From a virus (taxonomy: Duplodnaviria; Heunggongvirae; Uroviricota; Caudoviricetes): a DNA stretch of 7,540 bases. The stretch is from the IMG/VR virus record IMGVR_UViG_2660238573_000002, one strand, 5' to 3'. This document shows, in pieces, positions 4,105-4,185 of this stretch. A program made the translations under genes and the position numbers. Under the pieces are notes generated by a model, which saw only the letters and a list, made by a program, of their open reading frames with translations, had not been told where the DNA came from and did no database searches. Position 1 is the first letter of the stretch. Each line of letters opens with the position of its first letter.

Positions 4105-4185
4105 AAAAATACAATATGTACTTCTCAAATACAAGTAAAAATACACATTGTGCATGGATGGTTCCAGTACAGAGCGTAATAATAA
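4105..4185. promoter_or_regulatory. OR-type operator region with divergent PR (minus) and PRM (plus) candidates
   Basis: Three AATACA(A/C) half-sites at 4108, 4128 and 4140. Near-palindromes TACAATATGTA (4110-4120) and TACACATTGTG (4142-4152). Candidate PR on the minus strand: -35 TTTACT (4139-4134), 17-bp spacer, -10 TATTGT (4116-4111). Weak PRM candidate -10 TAATAA at about 4177-4182. Confidence 0.55.

Follow-up and report, generated by a model that had tools for sequence, protein, structure and literature searches.

We regard positions 4105-4185 of the window (i.e., the whole stretch of 7,540 nucleotides analyzed here) as very probably the right operator (OR) of the switch of a lambdoid Stx phage belonging to the VT2-Sakai immunity type, with three predicted dyads that would be read by CI and Cro. 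As these operators had already been predicted, annotated in a sequence record, and published, the finding itself is an ordinary one.

Its sequence identifies the window as the early control region of a lambdoid Stx phage, namely one of the VT2-Sakai (Sp5)/Stx1-converting/Stx2-II/Nil2/1717/YYZ-2008 type. The region from 3700 to 4900 was 100% identical to the corresponding regions of phi330, YYZ-2008, 1717, and Stx2a_WGPS4/6, and at least 99.8% identical to those of Nil2, 2851, the Stx1-converting phage AP005153, Stx2-II, and the PA-series phages. The PA-series phages represent the Sakai Stx2a prophage (Yin et al., 2015; PMC4587872). The same region was frequent in the chromosomes of E. coli O157:H7. 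AP005153 differed from the window by a 1-bp indel in the A-run adjoining OR1 (7 A in the former and 6 A in the latter), and Nil2 by an A-to-C change at the equivalent of 4131.

The minus strand of the window encodes ninB, P (DnaB-like; 1051-2427), O (2424-3245), cII (3426-3722; Pfam Phage_CII), and cro (3864-4079), while the plus strand encodes cI (4190-4849), an open reading frame of 173 amino acids at the rex position (5351-5872), and the antiterminator N (6529-6873). N matched Pfam N_peptide with an E-value of 2.2e-31; the Pfam match starts from the ATG at 6600 and the GenBank annotation from 6529. The start of cI can be placed on the ATG at either 4190 or 4196, and the start annotated in Nil2 is the equivalent of 4196. 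Thus, the divergent cro and cI genes are separated by a gap of 110-116 bp. The PADLOC search with the 173-amino-acid protein returned no match, no Rfam family was matched in the scan of the window, and the CII-site pattern TTGC-N6-TTGY showed no overall enrichment in the window. Cro is an all-helical protein of 71 amino acids with an HTH_3 domain (Pfam E-value of 4.2e-12), and CI comprises an N-terminal HTH_3 domain and a C-terminal Peptidase_S24 domain (Pfam). With 35% identity over 62 residues (E-value of 1e-12), Cro is a paralogue of the N-terminal domain of CI. Both were 100% identical in tblastn to the counterparts of the Stx1-converting phage, Stx2-II, Nil2, 1717, and the Sakai-type PA-series phages.

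Six 17-bp dyads in the window yielded the consensus AARTACA-N3-YGTAnTn, and positions 2, 5, 6, 7, 12, and 13 (A, A, C, A, G, and T, respectively, on the top strand as listed here) were invariant across the six. OR1 (AAATACAATATGTACTT; 4107-4123) was the best match to the consensus with a score of 19.9 bits, and covers the -10 element and spacer of the putative PR. OR2 (AAATACACATTGTGCAT; 4139-4155) is centered at 4147, about -43 from the presumed start of PRM, and abuts the weak -35 element of this promoter. The right half of OR2, TGTG, was also found in Louie, ST64T, Midgardsormr38, and SPN9CC. OR3 (CAGTACAGAGCGTAATA; 4165-4181) has CGTA as its right half and overlaps the putative -10 element of PRM. 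In the left operator (OL), OL3 (AAATACAAAGCGTTGTA) lies at 6336-6352, OL2 (TAGAACAAATTGTATTG; 6369-6385) overlaps the first 3 nt of the -35 element of PL, and OL1 (AAGTACATATCGTACTA; 6394-6410) covers the spacer and 5 of the 6 nt of the -10 element of PL. OR2, OR3, and OL3 carry one weak half-site each, with 3-4 of the 8 positions being symmetric. The original prediction had recognized three AATACA half-sites and two TACA-N3-TGTA-type near-palindromes between cro and cI, as well as the recurrence of the same motifs over the -35 and -10 elements of PL (6372-6407). The three copies of AATACA do exist at 4108, 4128, and 4140, but the copy at 4128 belongs to no dyad; the two near-palindromes were recovered, but with OR3 the count in OR becomes three; and the overlap with PL was confirmed, but OL3 lies outside the interval proposed.

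The six sites were scored with a symmetrized 17-bp weight matrix against the 7,519 17-mer positions in the window. Their scores ranged from 14.2 to 19.9 bits, and the next best position in the window scored 11.7 bits. In the leave-one-out analysis, every held-out site ranked between first and third among the 7,519 positions. With the matrix built from the OR sites, the three OL sites came second, fifth, and seventh, and with that built from the OL sites, the three OR sites came third, fifth, and seventh. Dinucleotide-shuffled windows contained 0.04 matches of at least 14 bits on average, compared with the 6 observed. Simpler patterns were examined as well. AATACA occurred 10 times in the window against 3.64 expected, the count of 10 being reached by 1 of the 200 shuffles; besides the three plus-strand copies in OR, copies were found near PL at 6337 (plus strand) and 6379 (minus strand). 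Two of the 10 matches are the arms of a hairpin at 7227-7258. TACA-N3-TGTA with one mismatch at most occurred 6 times against 2.04 expected (2 of the 200 shuffles), and five of the six matches were in the regulatory regions, namely 4110-4120 (an exact match), 4142-4152, 4168-4178, 6372-6382, and 6397-6407.

The same sites have been recorded before. In AP005153, a 'putative operator' is annotated at 3909-3925 (OR1), 3941-3957 (OR2), 3967-3983 (OR3), 6138-6154 (OL3), 6171-6187 (OL2), and 6196-6212 (OL1) in the coordinates of L001, and all six starts coincide exactly with the matrix matches. Sedhom and Solomon (2023; PMC10742460) presented six 17-mers in Table S1 as VT2-SA OR1 (AAGTACATATTGTATTT), OR2 (ATGCACAATGTGTATTT), OR3 (TATTACGCTCTGTACTG), OL1 (TAGTACGATATGTACTT), OL2 (CAATACAATTTGTTCTA), and OL3 (TACAACGCTTTGTATTT), of which naming was followed in this study. 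The identical six 17-mers appear for PST1/Sakai in Table S5 of Yin et al. (2015; PMC4587872), where they are credited to Fattah et al. (2000). All six sites in the window are the reverse complements of the 17-mers in the two tables. In the gel shifts reported in PMC10742460, lambda CI bound to the VT2-SA operators with apparent Kd values of 3.7-6.4 uM, compared with 0.2-0.35 uM for lambda OL1/OR1. The paper on the epsilon34 genome (PMC2629481) found the nearest repressor N-terminal domains in L, VT2-Sa, and Nil2, and proposed WTACRAWWTGTAT for the repressor of that phage. The searchable literature yielded no study in which the cognate CI or Cro had been examined by footprinting, gel shift, or reporter assay. 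The operator studies on BAA2326 and 933W (Koudelka laboratory) concern other immunity types, and the study on the Cro of a 'Bully phage' concerns another Cro.

We placed the putative PR, which would drive cro, on the minus strand at 4106-4134, with TTGTAT (4134 to 4129) as the -35 element, a 17-nt spacer, and TATTTT (4111 to 4106) as the -10 element. This placement was made by positional homology, as TTGCAT-17-TATTAT in Louie and TTGCTT-17-TATTAT in ST64T are in the same register to OR1. The putative PRM would lie on the plus strand at 4154-4182, with a weak -35 element (ATGGAT; 4154-4159) and TAATAA (4177-4182) as the -10 element. The locations of PR and PRM are annotated in AP005153 as the 'putative major rightward promoter' and the 'putative maintenance promoter for CI', respectively. 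Neither promoter was picked up by the promoter scan at the threshold of 9/12, and both match the sigma-70 consensus poorly, their positions being drawn from homology. On the other hand, the scan gave 9/12 for PL, which drives N and is located on the plus strand at 6383-6411 (TTGACC at 6383-6388, a 17-nt spacer, and TACTAT at 6406-6411). With the above assignments of PR and PRM, the -10 hexamer begins at operator position 13 in all of PR, PRM, and PL, so that RNA polymerase would be shut out when a repressor sits on OR1, OR3, or OL1. The distance of 7 nt after the -10 element suggests that transcription from PRM may start at around 4190, the A of the first ATG of cI, yielding a leaderless cI mRNA. 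The register of the PRM -10 element and a distance of 6-8 nt to the ATG recurred in ST64T, SPN9CC, Midgardsormr38, and Vibrio H20.

In the switch that we propose, CI dimers, with their N-terminal helix-turn-helix domain, and Cro dimers would read OR1, OR2, and OR3, and OL1-3 (6336-6410) would control PL. PR would be occluded from OR1, PL from OL1 and OL2, and PRM from OR3, while CI on OR2, at about -43 and adjoining the weak -35 element, would activate PRM. Lambda CI activates PRM from the equivalent position of OR2, and its positive-control residues are Glu34 and Asp38 in helix 2; these two residues were aligned with Glu and Glu in the CI of the window. In the lambda repressor-operator complex (1LMB), Gln33 and Gln44 contact the invariant A at operator position 2. 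Both glutamines are conserved in the CI of the window, Ser45 is replaced with Gly, and operator position 4 is changed from C to T. Residues 82-217 of CI are almost identical to the C-terminal domain of lambda CI (lambda repressor 3bdn; E-value of 2.8e-96). Given the near equivalence of this domain to its lambda counterpart, RecA-stimulated self-cleavage, dimerization, and cooperative contacts are expected to be lambda-like, and the prophage would be induced by RecA-stimulated self-cleavage of CI as in lambda.

The overall layout is that of the lambdoid tripartite switch, comprising divergent cI and cro, three dyads in OR, and the OL set over PL upstream of N. The likeness to lambda includes the divergent cI and cro, three 17-bp dyads in each of OR and OL, the -10 elements inside the operators, OR2 at approximately -42/-43 from PRM, the probable leaderless cI mRNA, and the near-identical C-terminal domain of CI, in addition to Gln33, Gln44, and the invariant A at operator position 2. 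In contrast, the half-site is TATCACC in lambda but AARTACA in the window. The N-terminal domain of CI is only weakly similar to that of lambda CI (1lli; E-value of 0.0026 and 21% identity), lacks the N-terminal arm, and is shorter by approximately 15 residues. Furthermore, unlike lambda Cro, the Cro of the window is all-helical and paralogous to the N-terminal domain of CI. The lambda consensus operator TATCACCGCCGGTGATA was absent from the window even when 3 mismatches were allowed, and of CI only the C-terminal domain is lambda-like; the window thus falls outside imm-lambda. Likewise, the window falls outside the 434 immunity, as no set of the 14-bp ACAA-N6-TTGT sites was found at OR or OL; this pattern with one mismatch gave 5 matches in the window against 4.6 expected. 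The window resembles 434 and P22 in that the N-terminal domain of the repressor and Cro both belong to the all-helical HTH_3 class, are paralogous, have similar recognition helices, and share one operator set. Nevertheless, the similarity to P22 C2 and the 434 repressor was weak (E-values of 0.009-0.3), and the sites are 17 bp in the window, unlike the 14-bp ACAA-N6-TTGT in 434 and the 18-bp sites in P22. On the other hand, the window shares Cro, the CI N-terminal domain, and all six operator 17-mers with the VT2-Sakai (Sp5) immunity type. The near-identity of the recognition helices of Cro and CI, which the original prediction pointed out, was borne out (TQGAIGHW in Cro and TQGGIGHW in CI). 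Its proposal of a candidate immunity specificity different from lambda holds as far as lambda is concerned; however, the comparison with the operators of known immunity types, in which the six 17-mers were equal to VT2-Sa OR1-3 and OL1-3 and neither lambda nor 434 was matched, identified the specificity as the known VT2-Sakai type rather than a new one.

Searches in which Cro or the CI N-terminal domain was the query returned diverged homologues, in which the conservation of the sites was examined. The switches of phage L/ST64T (immC; c2-cro) and epsilon34 are similar to that of the window, with Cro being 69% identical, the CI N-terminal domain being approximately 51-56% identical depending on the measure, and the helix being TQGAIGH(W/Y). 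ST64T, with the phage L-type immunity, has a Cro that is 69% identical to that of the window and the helices TQGAIGHY and TQGAIGHW. It shares the TACR-N3-TGTA core and the three-site layout (spaced by 34/26 bp in OR and by 25 bp between OL1 and OL2), but differs in the C-terminal domain, the flanks of the half-sites, and several residues of helices 2 and 3. When the matrix trained on the window was applied to the 7.2-kb locus of ST64T, the six best matches were exactly those in OL (2584, 2609, and 2639) and OR (3391, 3417, and 3451). Among the nine best matches in Midgardsormr38, a phage of Erwinia, three made up the OR triplet and three another triplet located upstream of the next genes in the leftward direction. 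The TACR-N3-YGTA core was found between cI and cro in Midgardsormr38, SPN9CC (Salmonella), a Klebsiella prophage, Vibrio H20, Pseudomonas phiPSA1, and Proteus Pm34. The relatives of which CI helix is T(Q/K)G(G/A)(I/V/L)(G/S)HW or SQSAIAHW retained both this core and the three-site layout. Closer to the window, E. coli phage Louie (96% identical in CI and 99% in Cro) showed changes in the operators only at positions 1, 3, and 7 and within N3; these fall where the six sites themselves vary, and we read them as neutral. In phage Bas106, the Cro homologue carries the helix NQSRLANY, which differs from that of the window, and the sites are CACA-N3-TGTG with lambda-like spacing of 23-24 bp; judged from these sequences, the helix and the half-site co-vary.

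The spacing of the sites is uneven. Centers are 32 bp apart between OR1 and OR2 and 26 bp between OR2 and OR3, and 25 bp apart between OL1 and OL2 and 33 bp between OL2 and OL3. The corresponding distances in the relatives were 32-34, 25-26, 25, and 29-33 bp, and the uneven spacing recurred across the phages of E. coli, Salmonella, Erwinia, Klebsiella, and Vibrio. In lambda, the spacing is 24/23 bp in OR and 24/20 bp in OL. The 32-bp spacing between OR1 and OR2 places OR2 upstream of the putative PR -35 element, not over it. As this distance is 24 bp in lambda, neither lambda-style cooperativity between OR1 and OR2 nor occlusion of the PR -35 element from OR2 can be assumed.

The above spacing bears on whether the number or the logic of the sites departs from a three-plus-three set, with weak extra sites being involved in, for instance, looping, or with OR2 and OR3 instead of OR1 and OR2 acting as the cooperative pair. 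Two candidate weak sites scored 11.7 bits each, CATAACCAATTGTATTT at 6222-6238 and AAGTGCGATTTGTGATT at 6946-6962, and two matches at this level appeared in merely 1.7% of the shuffled windows. Positions 6225-6237 are a 92% copy of the core of OL2, and the pair spaced by 25-26 bp is the one conserved in the relatives. Against this, each of the two extra sites is mismatched at a position invariant in the six, both are located in A+T-rich or coding DNA, and no counterpart stood out in ST64T. [quoted passage not shown]

Another reading takes the direct repeat AATACA(A/C) at 4108, 4128, and 4140 as the recognized unit, with tandem half-sites rather than dyads. Three exact copies of AATACA on one strand within 38 bp, the exact repetition of AAAAATACA at 4105 and 4137, and the AATACA similarly placed between OR1 and OR2 of SPN9CC are consistent with this reading. 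Nevertheless, the middle copy (4128-4133 on the plus strand) has no symmetric partner, as AAAA occupies 4137-4140. Moreover, it reads AATCCA in the homoimmune Nil2 and AATGCA in Louie (96-99% identical in CI and Cro), and was absent in ST64T, in which TTGCTT takes its place. The dyad is present in OR3, OL1, and OL2 although these sites have no AATACA on the strand in question, and HTH_3 repressors, for which 434, P22, and lambda provide established examples, bind as symmetric dimers. Altogether, recognition of the direct repeat appears highly improbable, and we favor the dyads as the recognized units. The middle copy falls within the putative -35 region of PR on the minus strand, of which TTG was conserved in the relatives with the altered copy. 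Because it has no dyad partner and was altered in the relatives while TTG was kept, we do not count AATACA at 4128-4133 as an operator half-site and assign it, as a probable component, to the -35 region of PR. A fourth dyad centered at 4135 and using this copy was also considered and rejected, as its right half is AAAA and the copy was not conserved.

Finally, it is barely conceivable that the motif merely reflects the A+T-rich DNA of promoters, the matches being due to chance or derived from promoters and the true operators being elsewhere or of another sequence: the simple patterns were moderately enriched (10 versus 3.6 for AATACA and 6 versus 2.0 for the one-mismatch dyad), every site partly overlaps a -10 or -35 element, and two of the 10 AATACA copies are hairpin arms, but the leave-one-out and cross-region matrices put the six sites at the top of the 7,519 positions, the matrix carried over to ST64T and Midgardsormr38 and picked OR and OL, the dyad core was retained while the promoter hexamers and spacers varied, and the core in Bas106, with its other helix, differs accordingly.

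As sites they are not novel, having been available in GenBank from 2003 onward as well as in print. What is left, and is mildly interesting, is the conserved spacing that differs from that of lambda, which may alter the logic of cooperativity, along with a possible cross-recognition with L/ST64T. From the conserved uneven spacing and the lambda-type C-terminal domain, we tentatively put forward, as a doubtful possibility, that CI loads OR2 and OR3 jointly and turns PRM off at a low concentration, provided that the cooperative contact of the lambda type is made preferentially across the pair spaced by 25-26 bp. If this is the case, the repressor level would be low, which would contribute to the readiness with which Stx prophages are typically induced. 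A further doubtful possibility is that the operators of L/ST64T and VT2-Sakai-type Stx phages are alike enough for cross-immunity. The switch controls the induction of the Stx prophage and hence the release of Shiga toxin, making the operators medically relevant.

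The phage records disagree in the annotation of the cI start (window 4148-4198). In the Stx1-converting phage AP005153, the start was placed at the ATG equivalent to 4154, so that OR3 and PRM, the operator and the inferred promoter next to cI, fall within the coding region. The start of Nil2 cI corresponds to 4196. We found two in-frame ATGs, at 4190 and 4196 (MKMKW). The former lies 7 nt past the inferred PRM -10, and the cI mRNA from this ATG would be leaderless, while the latter is located 7 nt past AAGGA. Comparable double ATGs are seen in Vibrio H20 (MKMKW), SPN9CC (MKMNW), and Midgardsormr38 (MNMKW). 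CI itself (window 4196-4849) is chimeric, and over residues 82-217 it is near-identical to the C-terminal domain of lambda CI (3bdn; E 2.8e-96). The PR region shows small polymorphisms: the A-run adjoining OR1 (within 4102-4109) comprises 6 A in the window versus 7 A in both the Stx1-converting phage and Nil2, and Nil2 additionally bears an A-to-C change at the position equivalent to 4131, within the inferred PR -35.

In their Table S5, Yin et al. (2015; PMC4587872) swap the OR and OL names of the six Sakai operators. The sites termed 'OR1-3' in that table are those adjoining N (OL3, OL2, and OL1), and 'OL1-3' are those in the cI-cro intergenic region (OR3, OR2, and OR1). The swap was judged by the positions of the sites in the sequence (window 4107-4181 and 6336-6410), together with Table S1 of Sedhom and Solomon (2023).

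The operator matrix, a symmetrised weight matrix built from these six sites, matched two further 17-mers at 11.7 bits each, namely CATAACCAATTGTATTT at 6222-6238, upstream of OL3, and AAGTGCGATTTGTGATT at 6946-6962, where the ORF following N begins. A pair of matches at this level turned up in 1.7% of shuffled windows. Both 17-mers are possible weak auxiliary sites. Two of the 10 AATACA matches in the window are part of a strong hairpin, GTGTATTCA...TGAATACAC (7227-7258; -23 kcal/mol, z -6.7), with no T-run on its 3' side.

By sequence reading, two nut-like sites were recognized, each consisting of a boxA-like element followed by a boxB-like hairpin: one 3' of PL on the plus strand (6459-6505; GCTCTTTAAACAA then GGCTGAAAAGCC) and the other 3' of cro on the minus strand (3806-3850; CGCTCTTTGTAACAA then TCGCTGAAAAGCGA). 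Neither had a match in Rfam. An exact CII-type site, TTGCTGTAACTTGT (3700-3713, plus strand), is present within the 5' end of cII, facing cI, and occupies the position of PRE. Nearly the same sequence, TTGCTGTCAGTTGT, recurs on the minus strand at 6855-6868, antisense to N and within its 3' end. The CII-type pattern showed no overall enrichment. Between cI and PL, the position of lambda rexAB is taken by a 173-aa ORF (5351-5872) of phrog_2602 (unknown function), which had no match in Pfam or PADLOC and is followed by a terminator-like hairpin (6174-6195). Inside O, four iterons (AGCYGNNNTRGCTWAT; 2821-2906) of ~16-22 bp each, at a spacing of 20-24 bp, are preceded by an A+T-rich stretch, and this array is probably the replication origin.

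Among solved structures, the best sequence match of Cro (3864-4079) was chain A of PDB 28tn, entitled 'lambda repressor-like protein', over the full length (E 4.5e-17). In Escherichia phage CurroJimenez_Bas106 (L004 2100-2170 and 2900-2965), the Cro homologue is 53% identical and possesses a different recognition helix (NQSRLANY), and the operators of this phage are of the form CACA-N3-TGTG, spaced 23-24 bp. Bas106 is a natural case of co-variation between the recognition helix and the half-site inside one Cro family.
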